From Candidatus Micrarchaeota archaeon (lineage in GTDB: Archaea > Micrarchaeota > Micrarchaeia > Anstonellales > Bilamarchaeaceae), in contig JBBITJ010000005.1 in NCBI GenBank assembly GCA_037440825.1, positions 1 through 49,261 of the forward strand: a stretch of 49,261 nt of DNA, read 5' to 3'. The notes beneath the pieces are model-generated. The model was not told where the DNA came from and ran no database searches. It saw nothing but the letters and a program-made list of their open reading frames with translations. The translations under genes were made by a program, and so were the position numbers. Shown here piece by piece: positions 844 through 16,593 of the stretch; position 1 is the stretch's first letter, and the number at the start of each line of letters is the position of its first letter.

Positions 844-1086
844 TCACGTCAGGATGCCTTGGGACGTGCTTGCTATGGCAGGCGCTGCAACTGAAATGGC
901 CGCGATTATCACGCCGCCTATGAACATGCTCACTGCGGCAGTGGTGTATTTGCCGCGCGCCTCCGCTGGCTGCATCTGCGCGAAGCCGTAGATTATGCCG
1001 CTGAGTATGATCAGGATGACGGAAAGCGTGGGTGCTATGCTGCTCAACGAACCTTGTATCCCTTCAAGGATTGTCTGCAGAGCCAT
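844..1086 (-). CDS. Small two-helix hydrophobic protein, TrbC/VirB2-like pilin
   Basis: 80 aa from ATG 1086: MALQTILEGIQGSLSSIAPTLSVILIILSGIIYGFAQMQPAEARGKYTTAAVSMFIGGVIIAAISVAAPAI. Hydrophobic hairpin with a short charged loop; TATA-like TTTATAAA at 1108-1115. Confidence 0.6.
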   Translation of the reverse strand: MALQTILEGIQGSLSSIAPTLSVILIILSGIIYGFAQMQPAEARGKYTTAAVSMFIGGVIIAAISVAAPAIASTSQGILT

Positions 1087-1201
1087 GGTTTCTATTCTGA
1101 AAAGCGGTTTATAAATATGAGGGTAACGAGGGGAAGAAAAACATATATATAGATTATTGGCGACTAAATATACAAGTGGTTGTGTGGAAAGGCAGTACAC
1201 G

Positions 1202-2484: not shown

Positions 2485-2500
2485 TGTAACTATAAGTACA
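2485..2500. promoter_or_regulatory. Imperfect copy of 16-bp palindrome (TGTAACTATAAGTACA) upstream of purL
   Basis: 14/16 match to TGTAACTATAGTTACA; about 26 bp upstream of TATA box TTTATATAAA (2527-2536). Confidence 0.6.
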
Positions 2501-2585: not shown

Positions 2586-5260
2586 ATGGCCAAGCGAATT
2601 GAAGTGAAATTCAAGGACGAGATCAAGGACCCCAGGGGCGAACGTTTGGCCGCGCTGCTGCGCACCGAATTCAAGGCAAAGGTCTCCAAGGTCGCGGTCA
2701 TAGACGCCTTCAGCATGGACGCGGACCTGGACGAAAGGGAGCTGGAGTTTCTGGGCATGGAGGTGTTCAGCGACAAGGTCGTGCAGGAATACTCCTACAT
2801 GAAGCCACTCGGCCGGGGCTGGCGGGTGGAGATAGGCTACCGGCCGGGAGTGACCGACAATGTGGGCAAGACAGGAAAGGATGCGATAGGGGACGCGCTC
2901 GGCAAGGAAGTTGATGTATATTCCAGCATGGTGTACGCGATAGACGGCGACATCGATGAAGAGGTCTGCGGCGAATTCGGGAAGAGGCTGGCGAACGAGC
3001 TCATACAGAGCATAAAGGTGAGCGCCCCAGATGCGCCGGAAGCCGAGACGTTCGCGCCCAACATACCCAAAGTGGTCCTGAAGCAGGAGGTAGTTGTGGA
3101 GAAGGTGAAGCTCCCTGCTGACGAGGAGAAGCTGGAGCAACTATCCAGGAGCAGGCTGCTCGCGCTCTCCGTGGCCGAGATGAAGGCGATCAGGAAATAC
3201 ATCACGTCCAAGAAGATTGTGGAGCAGAGGGCCGCGCAGGGGCTTTCCGACGAGATCACTGATGTGGAATTGGAAGTGATAGCGCAGACATGGAGCGAGC
3301 ACTGCAAGCACAAGATATTCAACGCCGAGATAAATTACAGCGAGGGCGAGGACAACTACAATGTCGATTCATTGTTCAAGACGTTCATACGCGGAGCCAC
3401 GGAGATGCTCAAGAAGCCGTACGTGGTTTCCGCGTTCAAGGACAACGGCGGCATAATCAAGTTCAGCCCTGCGTACGACATAGCTGTGAAGGTGGAGACG
3501 CACAACGCGCCGAGCGCAATAGACCCGTACGGAGGCGCGCTTACCGGAATATTGGGCGTGAACAGGGATATATTGGGAACTGGGATGGGAGCATACCCGA
3601 TAGCGAATGTTGACATGCTGTGCTTCGGGCCGCTGGATGCGGTTGAATCCGGAGCCGAAGACTTGAAACCCGGATGCGCGGTTGTGCCCCAAGGCGTGCT
3701 TCACCCGCGCAGGATATACGAAGGTGTGGTGGAGGGGATAAAAGACGGCGGCAACAAGAGCGGCATCCCCACAGTGAACGGCTCATTCACTTTCGAGCCC
3801 GGATTCGTGGCGAGGCCCGTGATATACTGCGGAACCGTAGGGATTATGCCTTCGGAAATAAAGGGGCGCAAGACTTCGGAGAAGAAAATTGAGCCAGGAT
3901 ACCTCGCGGTGATGGTTGGGGGCAGGGTAGGCAAAGACGGCATACACGGCGCGACTTTCTCCTCGCAGCAGCTCGAGAACAACATACCCACGAGCGTGGT
4001 GCAGATAGGAGACCCGATAACGCAGAAGAAGGCGATCGATTTCATAATGGAGGCGAGGGACGAGCTCCTTTACGAGGCAATAACAGACAACGGCGCAGGC
4101 GGCCTCTCGTCGAGCATAGGCGAGATGGCGGAGCAGAGCAACGGCTGCGAGATATGGCTTGATGCGGTTCCGCTCAAATATCCTGGGCTCCAGCCCTGGG
4201 AAATACTCGTTTCGGAGAGCCAGGAGCGCATGACGCTCGCTGTGAAGAAGGAGAATATGGAGCGGCTGGAGGAGCTCGCGAAAAAGCACGAAGTCGAGAT
4301 AACCGCAGTGGGCAAGTTCACTGACAGCGGCAAGCTGCACGCCCTCTACGAGGGCAAGACGGTCGCGTACCTAGACCTGGATTTCCTCCACCACCCGCCG
4401 AGGCTCAAGCTGGCTGCGAAATGGCAGAGGAAGACTTTTCCCGAGCCTAATATCAGGGAACGCGACCTTTCCGCTGCGCTGAAAAGGCTGCTGGCCTCGC
4501 CTAACATAGCATCCAAGGAGCACACGATAAGGCGCTACGACCACGAGGTGCAGGGCAAGAGCGTGATAAAGCCGCTCATGGGCAACAACGCGCCCTGCGA
4601 CGCAGCTGTCATAAAGCCGGATTTCGCGAGCTGGGAAGGACTGGTGGTGTCGCACGGCATCTGCCCGAAGTACGTCCAGGACAGCTACGACATGGCCANN
4701 NNNNNNNNNNNNNNNNNNNNNNNNNNNNNNNNNNNNNNNNNNNNNNNNNNNNNNNNNNNNNNNNNNNNNNNNNNNNNNNNNNNNNNNNNNNNNNNNNNGA
4801 GCTCGGGGGGAGCGAATACTACCGATTGTTCGGTGGAGTAGGGAACAGGAACCCCAAGGTGCACGTGGACGAGACGCTGCCGCTCTACCGCGCGTTCTCC
4901 GCTGCTTGCGAAATGAAGCTGGTGAAATCCGCGCACGATATATCGGACGGCGGGCTCGCTGTCGCGCTCGCTGAATCCAGCTTCCCGTCAGGCAAGGGTG
5001 TTGAAATAGACATACTCAAGGTGCCTGCGGAAACGCAGAACGAGGACGCTGTCCTGTTCTCGGAATCAGGAGGCAGGTTCGTGGTGAGTGTGGCGGAGAA
5101 GGACACGCAGAAATTCGAGAAGGTGATGGACGGGACTGTTTTTGCGCGTGTAGGCAGGGTGCGCGGGGACAAAAGATTCGTGGTGAAGAAAGGCGATGCG
5201 GTGCTCATTAACGAAAACACGCGCGACCTCAAGGCCATCTGGAACGGTGTGAAGATATGA
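2586..5260 (+). CDS. purL: Phosphoribosylformylglycinamidine synthase PurL with N-terminal PurS-like domains (interrupted by gap 4699-4798)
   Basis: AQTWSEHCKHKIF, KVETHNAPSAIDPYGGALTG, DNGAGGL, SESQERM, SAHDISDGGL. N-terminal DPRG and YRPGVTDNVG resemble PurS repeats. Confidence 0.95.
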
Positions 5261-7514: not shown

Positions 7515-7530
7515 TGTAACTATAGTTACA
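7515..7530. promoter_or_regulatory. Perfect 16-bp palindrome TGTAACTATAGTTACA between divergent ubiA-like and purF promoters
   Basis: Seen directly; flanked by TATA-like TTTAAA (7494-7499) and TTTTAAA (7566-7572). Confidence 0.7.
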
Positions 7531-7592: not shown

Positions 7593-8990
7593 ATGGATAC
7601 CAGCCCTAATTGTAGCTTTTTCAGAGATGAGGAGAAGGTCGAGCACTGCGGAGTAGTAGGGGTTTGCTCCAAGAAGGCGAAGAAGGTGGCACCTGCGATC
7701 TACCGCGGCATGGTGGGGCTCCAGCACAGAGGGCAGGACGCAGCAGGACTCGTGGTGTGGAACGAAGGGTTTGTGGAAAAGAAAGGTATAGGCCTGGTTT
7801 TGGATATATTCAAGAATGGAGATGCGGACATCGACGGAAAGGTCGGCGTGGGCCACACCAGATACCCGACAACCGGGATGTGCCTGATAAGCGACGTCCA
7901 GCCATTCAGTGGTATAAATATATCGGTTTCGCACAACGGTCAGGTCTCCAATTACAAAGACGTCCGCAAGGCGCTAGAGAAAAGGGGCTTCAAATTCACA
8001 TCCACTGTAGATTCGGAAGTAGTGGTATACCTGCTGCACGAGAAGCTCAACGAAGGCAAGTCGATAGAGGACGCAGTGAAGGCGGTCATGTTGTTGCTTG
8101 ACGGCGGTTATTCCATCACCGCGCTCGTGGGTGGCACGCTGATCGCGTTCAAGGACCCGAACGGCATAAAGCCGCTCGTGTGGGGTGAAAACGATGAATT
8201 GATAATGTTCGCTTCCGAGACCGTGGCTCTGGACGCAAACGGCGTCCCGTTCAAGGGCGACCTCAAGGGAGGCGAACTCGCGATAGTGCGCGACGGGAAA
8301 ATCGAGATCAAGAAGCTCGTGGATGCGAAGCCGGCCGCATGCATGTTCGAATATGTATATTTCTCCAGGCCAGACAGCACGATAAACGGTCGTAGTGTGA
8401 TAGATGTGAGGAAGAACCTCGGCAGGGAACTCGCACGGGAGCATCCTGCGAAAGCCGATGTCGTGATAGAAGTTCCGGACAGCGCGCGCACTGCGGCAGC
8501 CTCGTACGCCGACGCGCTTGGCATCCCACACGACGAAGGGCTGATAAAGAACCGGTATGTGGGAAGGACGTTCATAATGCCGAGCCAGCAGAAGAGGGTG
8601 GATGCTGTGCGGATGAAGCTCAACGCGGTGCGCCAGGTGGTCGCGGGAAAGCGGATCGCGCTCGTGGACGACAGTATAGTGCGCGGCACCACGCTCAAGG
8701 AAATAGTCTCGCTTGTGCGGAACGCCGGAGCGAAGGAGGTGCACGTGCGCATAACCTGCCCGCCCATACGCGCGCCGTGCTTTTACGGCGTGGACATGTC
8801 AACTTACAAGGAACTGGCTGCGCACACCAAATCAATTCCTGAAATAGGGAAGATGATTGGCGCCGACAGCATAGGCTACCTTTCCATGGAAGGGCTCAGG
8901 AAGGCGATCGGAATCCCGATCTGCACCGGCTGCCTTGACGAAGGCTACCCCACCCCTTACGCTAAAAAGCTTGCAGACGAACAGAAATGA
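7593..8990 (+). CDS. purF: Amidophosphoribosyltransferase
   Basis: EHCGVVGV propeptide/Cys, LQHRGQDAAG, GHTRYPT, CMFEYVYFSRPDS, VDDSIVRGTT. Confidence 0.98.
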   Translation: MDTSPNCSFFRDEEKVEHCGVVGVCSKKAKKVAPAIYRGMVGLQHRGQDAAGLVVWNEGFVEKKGIGLVLDIFKNGDADIDGKVGVGHTRYPTTGMCLISDVQPFSGINISVSHNGQVSNYKDVRKALEKRGFKFTSTVDSEVVVYLLHEKLNEGKSIEDAVKAVMLLLDGGYSITALVGGTLIAFKDPNGIKPLVWGENDELIMFASETVALDANGVPFKGDLKGGELAIVRDGKIEIKKLVDAKPAACMFEYVYFSRPDSTINGRSVIDVRKNLGRELAREHPAKADVVIEVPDSARTAAASYADALGIPHDEGLIKNRYVGRTFIMPSQQKRVDAVRMKLNAVRQVVAGKRIALVDDSIVRGTTLKEIVSLVRNAGAKEVHVRITCPPIRAPCFYGVDMSTYKELAAHTKSIPEIGKMIGADSIGYLSMEGLRKAIGIPICTGCLDEGYPTPYAKKLADEQK

Positions 8991-8996
8991 AGTGGT

Positions 8997-10553
8997 ATGA
9001 TGGCAGTAGTCATGATTCAGACGGACGAAATAACCAGGATGACCGGTCTCAGGAAGGAGCAGGTGCTGGAAAGCCTCAACAACATAGGGATGCCTGCCGA
9101 AGAGGCGGAAGGTGAGATTGTTGTGGAGATCACGCCGAACAGGCCCGACCTTTTCTCCATCGAGGGGCTTGCCAGAGCGCTGGATTCGTTCCACGGCAGG
9201 AAACCCAGGAATTATTCAGCGAAGAAATCCCAGTACGTTGCGAAAATAGACCCCTCGATCGGCAAGTCCAGACCATATTTCGTCTCAGCGGTGGTCAAGA
9301 ATGTGAGGATGGACGAAAGCGCGCTCAAATCGCTCATCCAACTCCAGGAGAAGCTCCATGAAACAGTCGGAAGGAAAAGGAAAAAAGTCGCCATCGGCGT
9401 GCACAACGCCGATGAGGTCGTTTTCCCGCTCGAGTACAGATTTGTGAAGAACGAAAGGTTCGTACCCCTGGACTTCGACCGCGAGATGGACATCCCGGAG
9501 CTGCTGGAAAGCCATCCCAAAGGCAGGGCGTACGCGCACCTCGTGAAGGACGGCTACCCGATGCTCTACGACAGAAAAGGTGTGATTTCATTCCCTCCAA
9601 TAATAAACAGCGAGCGCACCCGCGTGACTGAAAAGACAAGGAACTTGGTGATAGACATCACCGGCACTCATCTTGGAACCCTCAAAGGCGTGCTCAACAT
9701 ACTGGTCTGCGCGCTCGCCGACCGCGGAGGCGAGATTTATGAGGTCGCTGTCGGCAAAGCAACTTGCCCTGAGCTCGAGCCTGTGAAAATGGCTGTGCAG
9801 GCGGAGGAAATAAGCAAGCTCCTCGGCCAGAAGTTCAGCAAAAAACAAATATTCGAGAACCTCGCACGCCTCGGCTGGCCCAACGACGGGAAGAACGCGC
9901 TAGTGCCACCTTACAGGATGGACGTGTCGCATTACGCCGATATGGCTGAAGACGTCGCGATCGCGATAGGATACAACAATTTCGAACCCTCGCTGCCCAA
10001 TTTCTTCACCCCAGGCGCACTCGCGTACAACAACGACGATGTGAGGCAGGCGATGGTAGGCCTCGGGTTTGTGGAAGTGGTAAATTACGCGCTCACGAAC
10101 GAAAGAAAGCTCAAGCTCGTGCACAAGGACAGCAGGCCTGTGAAGGTGCTCAACCCCAAGACAGAGGAATTCACGCTGCTGCGCACCAATCTCGCAGTTT
10201 CGCTGCTTGACAACCTGGCGCTGAACAGGTCGCAGGAGCTTCCTATAAGGATTTTCGAGATAGGCAGAGCGTACGAAGGTAAGGAGAAAATCCACCTGGC
10301 CTTCGCGATGTCCGCAGAAGCGATTGATTTCAGCGCCATACGCGGCGTCTTGCAATCCGTTTCGTCCGTCATGGAGAAGGGATTCGAGCTCAAGCCGTCC
10401 AAAAGCAGGATGTTCATCACAGGTAGGGGGGCTGAAATATATTTGGATGGTAAAAAAGCCGGTGAAATAGGTGAAGTCTCACCTTATATACTGGAAGGTT
10501 TTGGTATAGAAAACCCAGTCTGCATTTGCGAAATAGAGATAATGGATGTGTAG
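8997..10553 (+). CDS. pheT: Phenylalanyl-tRNA synthetase beta subunit (archaeal type)
   Basis: EITPNRPDLFSIEGLARAL, QLQEKLH, SFPPIINS, VPPYRMDV...EDVAIAIGYNN. Confidence 0.97.
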   Translation: MMAVVMIQTDEITRMTGLRKEQVLESLNNIGMPAEEAEGEIVVEITPNRPDLFSIEGLARALDSFHGRKPRNYSAKKSQYVAKIDPSIGKSRPYFVSAVVKNVRMDESALKSLIQLQEKLHETVGRKRKKVAIGVHNADEVVFPLEYRFVKNERFVPLDFDREMDIPELLESHPKGRAYAHLVKDGYPMLYDRKGVISFPPIINSERTRVTEKTRNLVIDITGTHLGTLKGVLNILVCALADRGGEIYEVAVGKATCPELEPVKMAVQAEEISKLLGQKFSKKQIFENLARLGWPNDGKNALVPPYRMDVSHYADMAEDVAIAIGYNNFEPSLPNFFTPGALAYNNDDVRQAMVGLGFVEVVNYALTNERKLKLVHKDSRPVKVLNPKTEEFTLLRTNLAVSLLDNLALNRSQELPIRIFEIGRAYEGKEKIHLAFAMSAEAIDFSAIRGVLQSVSSVMEKGFELKPSKSRMFITGRGAEIYLDGKKAGEIGEVSPYILEGFGIENPVCICEIEIMDV

Positions 10554-10557
10554 AGGG

Positions 10558-10577
10558 ACCCCATAGTTCCACTATTA
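10558..10577 (-). promoter_or_regulatory. ORB-like element, left (TAATAGTGGAACTATGGGGT on minus strand)
   Basis: AGTGGAA core plus G-string as in archaeal origin recognition boxes; 13-bp perfect inverted repeat with 10903-10915. Confidence 0.45.
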
Positions 10578-10599: not shown

Positions 10600-10836
10600 T
10601 CAATAAAGCTGCTCCACATTCTCAGTTCGTATCTTATAAACCTCTATTTCCCCTTTGAAACCTCTGAAAAACGAATCCATCACTTTCTCGTACTTATCAG
10701 CAACTGCAAGCACCGATTTTGTCTTGAACGAAAAATCAGCAAGCCGAATCTTGTTGAAATGATAATAAAAACTGCGTTTCAGCCTTCTATAATCCCCTTT
10801 CTTCTTAGGTTTCAAGTCATAAAAATAAACCAACAT
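10600..10836 (-). CDS. Stand-alone Cas2/VapD-like small basic protein
   Basis: MLVYFYDL...YRRLKRSFYY...KTKSVL resembles the Cas2 YD motif and Q/xSV strand. SD-like GGTGA at 10841-10845; alternative TTG start at 10839. Confidence 0.6.
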   Translation of the reverse strand: MLVYFYDLKPKKKGDYRRLKRSFYYHFNKIRLADFSFKTKSVLAVADKYEKVMDSFFRGFKGEIEVYKIRTENVEQLY

Positions 10837-10858
10837 CAAATCACCAACCCCAATACAA

Positions 10859-10876
10859 ATGTAACTATAGTTACAT
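10859..10876. promoter_or_regulatory. Perfect 18-bp palindrome ATGTAACTATAGTTACAT in the cas2-like promoter
   Basis: Seen directly; lies between the AT-rich TATA region (10881-10900) and the start codon. Confidence 0.7.
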
Positions 10877-10902
10877 ACGTTTTTAATTTTTAATATTGTA
10901 TT

Positions 10903-10915
10903 TAATAGTGGAACT
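10903..10915 (+). promoter_or_regulatory. ORB-like element, right (TAATAGTGGAACT)
   Basis: Exact reverse complement of 10565-10577; adjoins the AT-rich tract 10880-10905. Confidence 0.45.
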
Positions 10916-11101
10916 GTACCCCCTACCCCACTACTTACTCTATTTTTTGTTGTTTGTTTCCGGCCTCCAGCTGTTGGCGTTTTGACGGCTATTTCATGAA
11001 AAGCTTCTACTTTTCCCGATCCAGTTCCCAGCTCCTGGCTTCTGTTTCCAACTTTCCAACTTCCAAATTGTTTTTATTCACCAAACCCCCAAAACAACAT
11101 C

Positions 11102-12619
11102 ATGAAGCTCGAACCGAGGGAATACCAGAAATCCATATTCAATTCCATAAAAGAGCAGGGCAACATGCTCGTGGTGCTTCCCACAGGGCTGGGCAAAACC
11201 CTGATCGGTTTCATGCTTATAGAAGAAAAAATAAAAAGTGGGAAATGTATGTTCCTCGCTCCGACCCGCCCGCTTGTGCACCAACACTACACCTCTTTCC
11301 TCCAGATTTCCGAAACCGATTCGGCATCGGTCGCGACAGTGACCGGCGAAATCCCGAAAAAGAAGCGCGCTTCACTATACGAAAAGAAAGTTATATTCTC
11401 CACCCCCCAGACGATAAAGAACGACCTCCTTTCCGGAACACTTGCAGACCCGTCCGCATTTTCCCTCTGCATATTCGACGAGGCGCACCGCGCGGTGGGC
11501 AACTATGCGTACACACTCGTTGCTGAAAAGATGAAGGAAAGCGCCCTCATAGTGGGGCTGACCGCCTCCCCGGGCGGAAACCGCGAGCGCATATCCAAGA
11601 TACTTTCCAACCTGTTCATAAAGAACGTCCAGCTCAGGACCAAGCACGACGCAGACGTGAAAGGGTATGTGAAGGAAATCAAAATCAAATGGCTTGAAAC
11701 TACACTCACCCCGGAATTGAAAGAGGTCAAATCCATCCTGGATTCCCTCATCTCGACCTATTCGCGCAACCTTGCGGCAATGGGCTTCCCACCTCAGATA
11801 AAATCCAAACGCCTCTTCCTCGCGCTCCGCCAGAAGATACTGAATATCCAGAGCAACGCCAAATACCCCATCCTCGTCACATACTCCATCCTGCTCAACC
11901 TGCTCCACATGCAGGAGCTCGTGGAAACCCAGGGCGCATCAGCGCTCAGGAGCTACCTGGAAAAGATGGCGGCTAAGGACACCAAGAGCGCATCAGCCCT
12001 GCTCAGGAAGCCTGAAATAGCGCGCATCAAGGCGATGCTCACATCAACTTCTGAGGAGCACCCCAAGCTCGCCATGCTCCTCAACCTCCTGAAGAAAATG
12101 GAAGGGAAGAAAGTGATAGTGTTCGCGCAATACCGGGACCAGGTGGCGCTCATAGAGAAAAAGCTGGTCGAAGCGGGAATCCCCGCGCGCATGTTCCTCG
12201 GCAAGAAAGGCGACTACACGAAAAAGCAGCAGGAGGAAACCCTTGACCAGTTCCGCTCCGATGCGTTCCGCGTCCTAGTCGCCAGTTCGATAGGCGAGGA
12301 AGGGCTCGACATCCCGGCAGTGGACGCAGTGATATTCTACGAACCGACGCCGAGCGAGATACGGAGTATCCAGCGCCGCGGCCGAGCAGGCAGGTTCAAG
12401 GAAGGTGAGGTCTACATCCTCATAACCAAAGGCACCCGTGACGAGTTTTTCCACTGGGCAGCGATAAACCGCGAAAAGAGGATGAAGCGCATAATCTCAG
12501 GCATGCAGAAAAGCTCCAGCAGCCTTCTGGCCACAGACCAACAACCAGAAAAAACCCATTCAGATGCAAAACCCGAAACCCACGCATCAGGACAATCGCG
12601 GCTAGACCGCTTTTTCTAG
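11102..12619 (+). CDS. Hef/FANCM/Mph1-like SF2 helicase without ERCC4 nuclease domain; C-terminal PIP box
   Basis: EPREYQ, LPTGLGKT, DEAHRAVGNYAY, TASPG, GEEGLDIP, IQRRGRAGR; ends QSRLDRFF. Confidence 0.92.
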   Translation: MKLEPREYQKSIFNSIKEQGNMLVVLPTGLGKTLIGFMLIEEKIKSGKCMFLAPTRPLVHQHYTSFLQISETDSASVATVTGEIPKKKRASLYEKKVIFSTPQTIKNDLLSGTLADPSAFSLCIFDEAHRAVGNYAYTLVAEKMKESALIVGLTASPGGNRERISKILSNLFIKNVQLRTKHDADVKGYVKEIKIKWLETTLTPELKEVKSILDSLISTYSRNLAAMGFPPQIKSKRLFLALRQKILNIQSNAKYPILVTYSILLNLLHMQELVETQGASALRSYLEKMAAKDTKSASALLRKPEIARIKAMLTSTSEEHPKLAMLLNLLKKMEGKKVIVFAQYRDQVALIEKKLVEAGIPARMFLGKKGDYTKKQQEETLDQFRSDAFRVLVASSIGEEGLDIPAVDAVIFYEPTPSEIRSIQRRGRAGRFKEGEVYILITKGTRDEFFHWAAINREKRMKRIISGMQKSSSSLLATDQQPEKTHSDAKPETHASGQSRLDRFF

Positions 12620-15600
12620 CGGTCTGAACTTCCTTTTTTCCCCATACCCGCCTTTTCCGAACCGCTCCTTGAAATAGTAAATCGCAGCCGCAGCAGCCAC
12701 GAAAACTGCGCTCGCGAGAAGCACTCCGCTGTAATCCTGCCTGTCCTCTGCAGCGGAAAGCACCTTGATTATTTCATCACTGGCTTCGAGCGCCTTCACA
12801 TATTCCCCCGCTTCCAGATAGCTGTCGAGTTCCGCAGCCAGCGCAGCAGCCTTCTTCCTTTCCTTTTCCTGAATCTTCTGCCCGTACGCCTCGTACGCCG
12901 CCATCGCTTCCTGCGCGTTGCGCCCTGCTGCTCCTTCCAAATAATCCAGCGTGGATTCCATCCCTCCTATATAATCAGAAATCGAGGCGTACTGCCTCCC
13001 AATCTCATCCATATCCTCTTTTCCTATCGCTTTCTTCATGCTGGAAACCGCAGCCTTCACATCCGCACTGTCCACCTTGAAAACGCTTTCGAACCTGCTT
13101 CCTTTAGCATCCGAGGCTGCTTTTGAATAATCGTCCAGAACCGCTTCCGCTTCCTCTACGAGTGCCTGCGCCCCTTCCGCAATCTCAGCCCTTTTCGCCG
13201 CGCTCGCGTTCTCCAACACCTCTACATTCGCCTCCAGCCCGTCCAGCGCTGCATCCAATCCGAATGCATCAACAAGCTCCCCGCTCGCCTCGAATTTGTC
13301 ATACTCCGCCCTGGCCTTGCCGAACATCACCGAGACCTGCGCATCCGCTTCCCCATTGTCCAGATACCTCGCATACAGCCGGTTGAGCTTGCCGGAAGCG
13401 TTTTTCCTGTACTCCTTCATCTGGTCCGCGAGCCACCCATTGTCATATCCACTGAGCGCAGAGACCTGCGCGCTCGCATTCATCCCCTCCAAGGAGGAAA
13501 TCAGCCTCTCGAGGTAATCCTTTCTTGCTGAAACCTTATCGTACAATCCACTTCTCACAACAGCCTCGCCGAGCGCAGCGCCTATCTTGTTGATTTCAGC
13601 CGCCACTTCAGAACGCAGCCTGTCGCGCTTCGCTTCGAGCTTCTCCAGCTCCACCTCATCCTTCCTGATCTGTTCGTATGCCTGCTGGAGCTTTTCCACT
13701 GCCCTTACCTCATCCATAGCAGCAAGCGCATCGCTCGCTTCGTCCACCAACGCCCTCGCACTAGCGCTGATGTTGGAGGCGTTGAGCTCTTTTATGGTCG
13801 CGTTGACGTATGCAGAGGTGTTGTCCACGTAATAACTCACCTCGAACCTCGCGGCCTTGCCCTTCTTCAGTCCGTACACNNNNNNNNNNNNNNNNNNNNN
13901 NNNNNNNNNNNNNNNNNNNNNNNNNNNNNNNNNNNNNNNNNNNNNNNNNNNNNNNNNNNNNNNNNNNNNNNNNNNNNNNCCACGTAATAACTCACCTCGA
14001 ACCTCGCGGCCTTGCCCTTCTTCAGTCCGTACACACGCACCACATATCCGTCTGCGGTTTCCATAGCCTCGACTTTTTCCCCAGTTACTGTTATCACTTG
14101 CTTTTCCCGCACCTCGTCCTGTGGCGGCACTTCCGCGAAAGTTTCAAGATATACCATATCCACATTTGGAACCAGCTCGATCTGGTACCTCTGGTACGTT
14201 CGTTCCCCTATCTTGGTACTCAGGTTCTTGGCGAACTTCCTTTCATACGCGTCTTGCATGGTGTATTGCGCTTCGAACGTGTGCAGCCCCTCCTCAAGTT
14301 TCCTTGAAACCATTCCCCCTTCCCCAATCGCGGCAGGCACTCCATCTATGTAAAGCCCGTCCCACGTTTCCGCCACAGCGAAGCGCCAGACATCCCCTAT
14401 CGTGCGCACATCTCTTGACTCGGTGATCATTGCCGAATAATTCTGGAACCCGATCGCGTCCACACTAACCTTCTCCGTTTTCATCACTACTTCCCGCTTT
14501 TCAAACAAATACCTCTGCCTTTCGTAGCCGCCTATCGCCTTCAGATAGAGCCTGATTTTCCCGTCATAGTAAGCCACGCCCCGCAGCAAGTCTGCGCCTA
14601 TCACGACGTCATCCTGGCTGAATTCCACTTTCGAGCCCGCTTCCACCACCAGATTCTTGCCTGCGTAAGGTGCCGCATTGACCACTATGATCTCGAGGCT
14701 GGATTCAGATTCGCCGTCCAGCACCGCATCCTCGGAATAGAGCGAAGCGCTGGCCAGCAGCCTGCCTGCACCCAGATTCACCATGCTTTCGTGCGCATCC
14801 TTCAAAATCTCCCCATACTTTTTCCGTAGTTCAGCGAGCGAGCCGACCGCTTCAGGGTACGAAATCGTCCCGGCAGACACAAGCCCTGCTTCGGCTTGTT
14901 CAACCATGAGTGCGAGGTCCGTGCAACCCTCCCCGCATTCTTCTATCGCAGCAATCACCTCCCCTCTCAACCTGGGAAGGTCCGAATACCGTTCCATCGC
15001 GCTTTCACCCACGCTGGCGATTATCGCCGAACACCCTGCCAGCAGCGCGGAAGCGTTGTCCCCATTTTCCAGCACCGAAAGGTACGCTCTCTCGAATTCC
15101 ACCTGGATGCCGTCAGTTTCCGCCCGTGCGAGCAGCGCCTCCGCTTCCGCGCACGTTCCAATCGCGCTCCAGTTCGTATCAGCTTCAGCCTCGCTCGAGA
15201 CCGCGAGCGCAGCCTCGGCATCAGCGATCGCCCTCGCATAATACTCTAGCCTCCTTCCCTGAATTTCCTCATCCAGCCCTGCCTGGAATTCAGCTTCTGC
15301 ATCATCGTAAAGCGCCTTTGCCCTGGAAGGCCAGGCAGAGCTCGCGAATTTCCTCTCCACGTCAGAAATCCTCACCCTGGCTTCGCCTTCATACTCCTGC
15401 ACGACCGTTTCAACCACGTCCAGCGCAGCCGAGAACTCGTCTTCCGCCTGCTTCGCAAGCTCCCTTGCCGCAGTCGCGTTTGCGAGCGCATTCTTCAGAT
15501 AGCCGCTTCCGCGGTGGGCTGCAGCTGTCTCGGCATATTCCAGCCTTCTTTTCGCCTCCGCGACGTGCCTCTTACCGCTTTCAGCCAATTCGTCCACTGC

Positions 15601-16593
15601 AGCGAGTCCGTCCCCTATGTTTTCCCCGAATACCGCGCTTCCCCCTACCCTCCACAATTCGGCATCGTCCGCTGCCTGCTCCATCAGCTCCGCAGCGGCA
15701 ATCTCCGCAACAGCTTCCGCGCGCACGCTTTCGTAATTTGCCGCGCTTCCGCTTACCTGTGCATCCACCTGCGCTGCAGCCGCATTTACCTTATTCACAG
15801 CGCCGAAGTAATCGTCGCCTATGATATTCATGGGCCAGCCGAACTCTATCAGGGGCACGTCGTCATAAACCCGCAGGGTGTTGTTCTCCAGCATGCTCCT
15901 CACCAGCGCGAAATCCCCGCTTCCACCTTTTCCAGCAGCAGCGAGCAACGCCTCCGCTTCCGCGCACGCTTCGTGCCCTGCGACGTCCTGTCCGCAAACC
16001 CCTGCGTATTCAGCTTCAATCAGCGCAGCCTCCAATCCAACAAGCGCTCCATTCAGCCTCTTGACCCGCGCTTCGAGCGCATCTAGGGCATTGTTCATCG
16101 TCCCTCTCCATGCCTTCGCGTAATCTTCCGAGAACCACCTCTTCGCGATGAAATACCTGAAATCCCGGCCGAAGTTGAGATTGCAATTAATCGCCCTGTC
16201 CACAACGAAGCACGCGCAGTTCGCGTCTCCGGAAGCGGCGCATATGTCCTTCACGTTATATATGTAAGGCAATATCCAGTAATTGGTGAAGTCGTCGACC
16301 TGCGTCCAGATGTTTCTCGCCAGCGAATAGTTCCCTTGTGCCTCGCGCACAGTGGGTGCGTCCCTATACTCCCCTTCCACGGAATTCACCGCGAGCCGGT
16401 CCAGGCTCGCCTGCGTTTGGTATATATCCCACTCCGGCGAGAGCGGCGGCACGAGGGTGTAATCCACTACATCAGAATTCCCTGGCCACTGGACCTCATA
16501 ATTCCACGGCCTCGCGAACGTCTGTGGAAAAGGGTCTATCGCAAACGAAACTAGAACTAGCGCAAGGAGCCCAAAACCTTCCTTTTTGAGCAT
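12602..16593 (-). CDS. Giant membrane-anchored surface protein (~1278 aa after closing the artefactual gap)
   Basis: N-terminal signal peptide, Ala/Glu-rich helical regions, central beta-rich segment, C-terminal TM and basic tail. 55 bp is duplicated on both sides of gap 13880-13979; collapsing it gives an in-frame 3837-nt ORF. Confidence 0.8.

Follow-up and report, generated by a model that had tools for sequence, protein, structure and literature searches.

A conserved small-protein gene of Micrarchaeota with a palindromic promoter element: a candidate autoregulated factor at a chromosomal strand-composition switch

We analysed a 49,261-nucleotide stretch of DNA from a Candidatus Micrarchaeota archaeon (the window) and found that a 78-aa protein encoded in it represents an undescribed, widely conserved family, and that its gene is a real, selected one. 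The explanation that we favour, with a confidence modestly above even, is that the protein is a homodimeric, autoregulated, palindrome-binding factor with a lineage-variable nucleotide-synthesis regulon, encoded in a probable origin of replication. In this explanation, we infer the binding of the protein to the palindrome, the sign of the regulation, any ligand and the identity of the origin. The features concerned are listed in Table 1.

Table 1. Positions of the small gene, its surrounding elements and its candidate targets in the window
Feature	Position	Strand	Remarks
PurS-PurL (FGAM synthase) fusion gene	2586..4841	+	Candidate target
Palindrome copy with two mismatches	2485..2500		86 nt upstream of the PurS-PurL fusion gene (2586)
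Second exact 16-bp palindrome copy	7515..7530		63 nt before the purF ATG (7593), between a divergent UbiA-family gene and purF
purF (amidophosphoribosyltransferase)	7593..8990	+	Candidate target
pheT	8997..10553	+	Convergent neighbour downstream; synteny kept in 22/42 loci
ORB-like arm downstream of the gene	10555..10577		G/C run and 13-nt core (10565-10577)
Small-protein gene	10600..10836	-	78 aa; stop codon 10600-10602; ferredoxin-like/Cas2-like fold; predicted homodimer
18-bp perfect palindrome, candidate operator	10859..10876		16-bp core TGTAACTATAGTTACA at 10860-10875
AT-rich promoter-like stretch	10877..10902	-	Between the upstream ORB-like arm and the palindrome; putative TATA box
ORB-like arm upstream of the gene	10903..10931		13-nt core (10903-10915) and C-run on the + strand
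Hef-like DEAD/ResIII helicase gene	11102..12619	+	Divergent neighbour upstream, in 13/42 loci

The open reading frame called at this position in the ORF list (10600..10839, minus strand) comprises 79 aa and starts with TTG. The next codon is ATG, which is the start in eleven relatives with 55-78% identity, ten of them 78-82 aa long, and since this start is common to the relatives we assigned the gene to 10600-10836. The protein has a pI of 9.73 and contains 12 lysine, 6 arginine, 8 phenylalanine and 8 tyrosine residues. An alignment of family representatives showed that its VYFYDL strand and its KSV motif are both conserved. Among 67 family representatives, residues D7 and S41 are at least 90% conserved, and helix 1 bears most of the near-invariant residues (K20, R21, F23, Y24 and Y25). 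An earlier note on this DNA had described a basic, aromatic-rich protein of 78 aa with these two motifs, and the ORF, the composition and the 67-representative alignment bear this out. The alternative of a non-coding ORF was ruled out by the conservation across relatives.

A sequence search returned 12 proteins at E≤0.01, including the protein of the window itself, two of which have a named source (Candidatus Burarchaeum australiense and a 'Candidatus ainarchaeum sp.' MAG). When 1.84 billion cluster representatives were searched with a profile, 70 of them matched at E≤1e-3; the names of ten distant ones were looked up, and all were unnamed or 'hypothetical protein'. The window protein had no match in Pfam at E≤10 and a single chance-level match in NCBIfam (E 0.21), and sequence searches of the PDB, whether started from the protein or from the 12-sequence profile, gave chance-level matches only (E of at least 0.2). 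The ESM Atlas yielded only clusters of hypothetical archaeal proteins, and the family was not found in the literature searched on Micrarchaeota origins and on archaeal purine regulators. Family matches were present in 152 of 401 Micrarchaeota genomes, with one copy in 151 and two copies in one. The gene is near-universal in the taxonomic families f1 (69/75), f2 (29/30), f12 (7/9), f15 (6/6) and f18 (6/7), and was not found in f10 (0/94), f11 (0/83) and f14 (0/21). One Bilamarchaeaceae MAG carries two copies of the gene (loci L010 and L011) with near-identical promoters and a TGTAACTCTGGTTACA palindrome. The flanks of these two loci differ and the ORB-like arms are absent from them, and the pair may represent a duplication or a mobile context.

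The small gene has purF and pheT on one side and the Hef-like helicase gene on the other, and genes for PurS-PurL, PurN and 5-formyl-THF cyclo-ligase lie nearby in the window. No co-oriented partner gene was found beside it. In the host genome (45 contigs, 875,410 bp, 95.6% complete), neither Cas1 (PF01867) nor Cas2 (PF09827) was matched, and PF09827 had no match in four other scored genomes of the same genus. No CRISPR-like tandem array was found in the window. The gene had been described as standing alone, without cas1, a CRISPR array or an antitoxin, and the Pfam search of the genome, the array search of the window and the neighbouring genes agree on this point. A mobile element with terminal inverted repeats was ruled out, because the small gene is single-copy and syntenic.

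Some further observations concern single loci. Among sequencing data, the stretch was found in assembled DNA contigs of one study, and no RNA dataset was listed for it. In a genome assembled as one contig of 1.57 Mb (G301), an additional small ORF of ~76 aa (865674-865904) lies between the palindrome and the small gene, and the promoter and operator there appear to serve a two-gene unit. Elsewhere in the window, a 118-aa ORF (844-1200, minus strand) gave sub-threshold matches to TrbC/VirB2 and T4SS pilin (E 4e-5 and 5e-4). A run of N at ~13880-14007 splits an apparent single, very large surface-protein gene (ORFs 12602-13879 and 13867-16593, minus strand); the peptide VYGLKKGKAARFEVSYYV occurs on both sides of the gap, so that the gap edges are duplicated and represent a scaffolding artefact.

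The core of the promoter palindrome ends 23 nt before the ATG of the small gene, within a segment (10840-10902) of 24% G+C. The perfect 18-bp palindrome noted earlier can be read directly from the sequence and indeed recurs in related loci. With either A or T permitted at half-site position 5 and at most one mismatch, it was present in the 900 nt upstream of the gene in 38 of the 42 distinct loci that remained after removal of five duplicates. The loci without it were a distant metagenome locus (L047) and all three examined loci of f2 (L066, L074 and L077). Half-site variants were often one-sided across related loci, which favours a protein-binding site in DNA over an RNA hairpin, and an Rfam search at the locus returned nothing at E≤1. 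A comparison by eye of the helix-1 residues with the A/T variant at half-site position 5 revealed no clear covariation, and the sequence of the palindrome was not found in the literature searched. In 21 of the genomes with a single exact copy and listed coordinates, the copy lies within ~120 nt of the small gene, which is the pattern expected of an autoregulated factor. In f2, the sole exact palindrome is elsewhere in nine single-copy genomes. The autoregulation suggested in the earlier note fits the conservation of the palindrome at the promoter, and the protein would be a putative DNA binder. In many relatives, a second exact palindrome occurs 150-500 nt further upstream, in or before the Hef-like helicase gene (for example, site 1295 in L225 and site 1712 in L240; also in L004, L006, L008, L009, L042 and L057), and the window genome has lost it at the orthologous position.

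The exact 16-bp core has two copies in the 875-kb genome, one at the small gene's own promoter and one before purF; a chance control gave 0-2 matches in five shuffles, even at one mismatch. At up to two mismatches, the window contains three matches compared to 0.38 expected. Two other genomes of the genus have exact sites 94 and 76 nt in front of the purSL orthologue, whose product shows 70% and 68% identity, respectively, to the PurS-PurL protein of the window. Other sites in the genus precede an NFACT gene, a phosphomutase-like gene (assigned by eye), a surface-protein gene and small unknown genes, and some are located inside the helicase gene. The purF site in the window may sit upstream of a TATA-like element, a position that would be at odds with simple repression. 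Exact copies are present in 50 of the 81 genomes of the taxonomic family, with a maximum of 19 in one genome, and a reversed-pattern control gave 0-1. Of the 16 sites in the genome G258, 11 are followed by a start codon within 100 nt, and no start codon was assigned to the other five. Five of the 11 start-proximal sites precede purE, purN, purF, purP or pyrD, and others belong to PriL, a kinase-like gene (a P-loop protein by Pfam), HisRS, a beta-CASP gene and the small gene itself; Pfam also identified ferredoxin, glycosyltransferase and Hef-like helicase genes beside sites. Three to five exact palindromes were located within ~15 kb of the small gene in G053 (contig C1), G258 (C15), G282 (C6) and G223 (C4), and these clusters probably reflect purine genes gathered near the locus, as in the window.

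The spread of the motif across taxonomic families follows that of the small gene. The exact motif was present in 110 of 167 genomes of families with the gene versus 8 of 221 genomes of families without it (f10, f11, f13, f14, f17, f19 and f20), in a count that omits 12 genomes of small families and in which related genomes are not independent. Genus g4 has 0-1 exact copies of the motif though purE is present in 27 of its 28 genomes, indicating that purine control is not general. Furthermore, the gene is present in families that lack purE (f15, 6/6; f18, 6/7) and absent from families that have it (f13, f14 and f19), and its retention in the former means that purine control cannot be its sole role. 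The distributions of gene, motif and purE thus point to a conserved core of the gene with its own site, and to the nucleotide-synthesis regulon as a lineage-specific extension.

The AlphaFold (AF2) model of the protein had a pLDDT of 90.1 and a pTM of 0.78 and showed a ferredoxin-like β-α-β-β-α-β order, with modelled elements at residues 2-8 (strand), 13-29 (helix), 42-45 (strand), 47-58 (helix) and 64-70 (strand). Foldseek returned nothing at E≤0.001, and its list of weak matches (E from 0.028 up) mixes Lrp, PII, PstA, Cas2 and VapD, with E 0.045 and TM 0.51 for the Cas2 chain 7cr6_E and E 0.089 and TM 0.50 for the VapD structure 6zn8_B. With VIA-align, the best hit was a DUF3240 protein (Z 8.1), and Cas2 8ia4_A ranked 18th (Z 6.2, rmsd 3.0, 74 aligned residues). 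The structural neighbours are all ferredoxin-like, and many unrelated ones score as high as Cas2 or higher. The fold class is therefore clear in the model, and the modelled structure alone does not single out Cas2. The ferredoxin-like fold expected under the reading of the earlier note is thus present in the model.

Sequence comparisons gave a weak signal in the same direction. PF09827 is the Pfam family matched by most members, at 3 of 67 with a best E of 0.014, which is below threshold, and eight PADLOC Cas2 models each matched 1-3 of the 67 members, also below threshold (best E 0.0021). We compared the family with an alignment of 30 true Cas2 proteins from the same phylum using hhalign, and obtained a collinear alignment of 67 columns with a P value of 0.0019 and a probability of only 14.6%. 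The score was 23.3, whereas reversed alignments scored 13.9 and 14.0 and 30 column shuffles scored 6.8-14.8. D7, located at the end of strand 1, corresponds in the alignment to D9 of these Cas2 proteins, which is invariant among them. Judged from these sequence comparisons, remote membership of the Cas2 superfamily is probable. The protein is not a member of the Cas2 family proper, as the genomic association that defines this family is missing. Of the Cas2 fold claimed earlier, the ferredoxin-like fold and a weak, in-register likeness to Cas2 held, at a level at which no model reached its threshold and the fold search did not single out Cas2.

The homodimer prediction scored 0.61 (median of three runs), compared to 0.00 for the best control. 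In the calibration of the tool, 20 of 30 proteins solved as pairs and 1 of 23 solved as single chains attained this mark. At least 91% of the contacts were common to the runs, and the pLDDT of the partner was at least 80. The predicted interface comprises β1, residues 38-42, α2, β4 and an exchanged C-terminal tail, and helix 1 (13-29) lies outside it. The prediction supports pairing of the protein as a homodimer; the pass may partly reflect its likeness to Cas2, because Cas2 dimers are among the solved structures.

The small gene lies between two ORB-like arms, the downstream one situated in the 46-nt spacer between the stop codons of pheT and the small gene. The 13-nt cores of the arms are 100% complementary, are 325 nt apart and represent the sole exact copies in the 875,410-bp genome. 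The 325 bp between the arms have a G+C content of 34.2%, compared to 54.7% for the genome, which places them in the lowest 0.24% of 325-bp windows. Both arms were recognisable in 26 of 42 loci, including loci of f12, f23, f32 and f33 with different flanking genes; the pairs were screened by motif search, as a screen for the longest exact inverted match was confounded by unrelated matches. In f1, mostly 37-50 nt separate the upstream arm from the palindrome, and the spacing between the palindrome and the start codon is variable. The arms carry 'TTCCACT' with an adjoining C/G run, followed by A/T-rich bases, and contain no 'GAA'. In the part of Matsunaga et al. (2007, PMC1904270) consulted, Pyrococcus ORB oligonucleotides contain the 'TTCCACT' and C/G run common to the arms, and the 'GAA' motif of the mini-ORB is called perfectly conserved, alongside 'TTCC'. 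The inverted arrangement and the conservation of the repeats are thus established, and we call them ORB-like, with 'GAA' missing and orc1/cdc6 located elsewhere. Across homologues, the neighbourhood analysis suggested in the earlier note showed the palindrome, the ORB-like arms on both sides and a syntenic context at the frequencies given above.

All three genomes that we examined show a switch of the GC skew from positive to negative at the locus. The cumulative skew of the window has its maximum at 10-11 kb. In G301, computed with one 3,987-aa gene of aberrant composition masked, the maximum over the whole genome is reached within the 2-kb interval 864001-866000 and the minimum near 32 kb; the locus in this genome is at 865516-866295. 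The masked ORF (845895-857855, L122-L123) has a skew of -0.18, lies ~8 kb from the locus and shifts the raw cumulative-skew maximum by ~25 kb. In G102, which belongs to another taxonomic family, the skew is +0.10 just before the gene and -0.12 just after it. This polarity is the reverse of the bacterial origin rule. A passage of PMC1868953 gives the usual rule as a G-rich leading strand, and the same source describes an inverted skew polarity in haloarchaea (Norais et al. 2007). Gene orientation in G301 is slightly biased away from the locus, with 288 plus-strand and 338 minus-strand genes to its left and 303 plus-strand and 282 minus-strand genes to its right. The bias is weak (Fisher p 0.044), and the same tendency was seen in G102.

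The single Cdc6_C match of the host genome is on contig C14. The distance from orc1/cdc6 to the locus is 95 kb in G301 and ~390 kb around the circle in G102, and the two are on different contigs in G357, G377 and G006. Before the sole orc1/cdc6 on contig C14 (L002, 2701-3020), GGAAAC-type direct and inverted repeats 82 nt apart surround a moderately AT-rich stretch, and no skew switch was seen on this 25-kb contig. The region upstream of orc1/cdc6 may be a second, cdc6-linked origin. We put the chance that the small-gene locus is a replication origin at about even; that it is neither origin nor terminus is possible at clearly less than even chance, and that it is a terminus is decidedly unlikely.

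In the mechanism that we propose, the small basic protein would form a symmetric homodimer on a ferredoxin-like, Cas2-like scaffold, and this dimer would recognise the palindrome TGTAAC-N4-GTTACA, a palindromic site that the symmetry of the predicted dimer fits. Helix 1, which carries the KR-FYY--NK motif, presents the most conserved surface and is free of the predicted dimer interface, would be the likely element for reading the DNA. At the gene's own promoter, the site just downstream of the AT-rich TATA-like stretch would cover the likely transcription start, and a dimer bound there would repress the small gene, resulting in autoregulation. The same site lies from a few to ~90 nt upstream of the start codons of other genes; this putative regulon would vary by lineage and be rich in genes for the de novo synthesis of purines and pyrimidines, and would include some genes of replication and repair. 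The small gene lies with its promoter and candidate operator between the ORB-like inverted repeats, in the AT-rich 325-bp island at the skew switch. Considering that an origin is the likeliest identity of the locus, the factor may in addition influence the activity of the origin or be controlled by it. A more far-reaching version, which we regard as tentative and rather doubtful, is that a Cas2-fold homodimer was recruited in Micrarchaeota as an origin-resident palindrome-binding factor for its own gene and for nucleotide-synthesis and replication genes, encoded between the ORB-like elements of an origin without linkage to orc1/cdc6 and tying nucleotide supply to initiation. In this version, the factor would be a functional counterpart of the dual role of DnaA, with an unrelated fold.

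The palindrome could instead be the operator of a different transcription factor, with the small protein a mere member of the regulon that acts in another role, for example as a nucleoid-associated, origin-associated or RNA-binding protein. A different factor confined to the same clade could bind the palindrome, and the neighbours of the fold are signalling or nuclease proteins, with no sequence-specific DNA binders among them. The small, basic, single-copy protein is also reminiscent of a chromatin protein, and the gene persists in f2, whose loci lack the palindrome. We nevertheless consider this explanation unlikely, as the motif tracks the small gene across families, its sole exact copy lies at the gene in 21 genomes, and the predicted symmetric dimer matches a palindrome.

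Two further explanations have still lower probabilities. In the window, G301 and G102, the top strand is rich in G on the left side of the locus and rich in C on its right side, and the locus would be a terminus under the rule of a G-rich leading strand as stated in the part of PMC1868953 consulted. The protein would then be an autoregulated, Tus/RTP-like fork-arrest factor beside its inverted sites, two elements that are unique in the genome and have no orc1/cdc6 adjacent to them. The gene of a fork-arrest factor lies next to its sites in tus-TerB and rtp-IR as well. However, the arms share 'TTCCACT' and the C/G run with Pyrococcus ORBs (in the passage of PMC1904270 cited above), the genes of G301 (weakly) and G102 tend to point away from the locus, skew polarity is inverted in haloarchaea (according to the same part of PMC1868953), and palindromes dispersed over promoters are a misfit for a pure fork trap, so that we consider this reading improbable. 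A solo nuclease or toxin of the Cas2/VapD type, left over from a lost CRISPR or toxin-antitoxin module, is very improbable. It would account for the weak in-register matches to Cas2 models, for the conserved Asp at the end of strand 1 and for a predicted dimer that exchanges its C-terminal strand and has this Asp at its interface; such a remnant is hard to reconcile with a single-copy, syntenic core gene that is near-universal in several taxonomic families. Moreover, an antitoxin-like partner is absent, Cas1 was not found in the host genome, canonical Cas2 is present separately in 46 of 301 genomes of the phylum, and viral contigs searched for relatives of the small gene yielded none.

Under the favoured explanation, the protein would resemble an autoregulated palindrome-binding repressor in its working and Cas2 in its build, as far as can be read from sequence. 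Like Cas2 (PF09827), it belongs to proteins of ~80-90 aa with a β-α-β-β-α-β ferredoxin-like fold, a hydrophobic first strand ending in Y-D and an S-V motif in the second strand, and it resembles Cas2 in the exchange of the C-terminal strand in its predicted homodimer and gives weak profile matches to Cas2 that are in register over the full length. Unlike in Cas2, helix 1 and the next loop are ~11 residues longer and carry the family-specific KR-FYY--NK motif, and the gene, without cas1 or an array, belongs to the syntenic core and has a palindromic promoter element of its own. The VapD toxins of the Cas2 superfamily have the same fold class and gave a weak Foldseek match, but the small gene has no adjacent antitoxin gene and its context is neither mobile nor variable.

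Archaeal oriC regions, as described in parts of PMC4010727 and PMC1904270, consist of an AT-rich region with inverted ORBs on its flanks and an adjoining orc1/cdc6, and the position of the small gene recalls the pairing of an origin with a neighbouring factor gene, which is also described in that part of PMC4010727. The small-gene locus similarly has inverted 'TTCCACT' and G/C-run elements flanking an AT-rich region at a skew switch. It differs in lacking the 'GAA' half of the mini-ORB, in having only two elements, in holding a gene within the flanked region and in having no adjacent orc1/cdc6. Bacterial DnaA offers another parallel, as an initiator that also represses its own gene and nucleotide-synthesis genes. 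Here too, one motif would be common to the origin region, the own promoter and nucleotide-supply genes, and the gene of the factor would lie at the origin. In contrast to DnaA, the small protein has an unrelated fold without an ATPase domain, initiator activity is not indicated, and the palindrome differs from the ORB-like elements.

What appears to be new here, on sequence grounds, is an undescribed conserved family with a candidate operator, a candidate regulon and a chromosomal strand-switch position. To our knowledge, next to nothing is known about regulation or the control of replication in DPANN archaea. If the favoured explanation is true, the family would be a new class of archaeal transcription factor on a Cas2/ferredoxin-like scaffold, and would provide a defined operator and the first nucleotide-synthesis regulon in Micrarchaeota. 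The locus would be a candidate chromosome origin (or terminus) away from orc1/cdc6 and could serve to estimate growth rates from metagenomic data. A relative of Cas2 with a function outside CRISPR would bear on the origins of Cas2.
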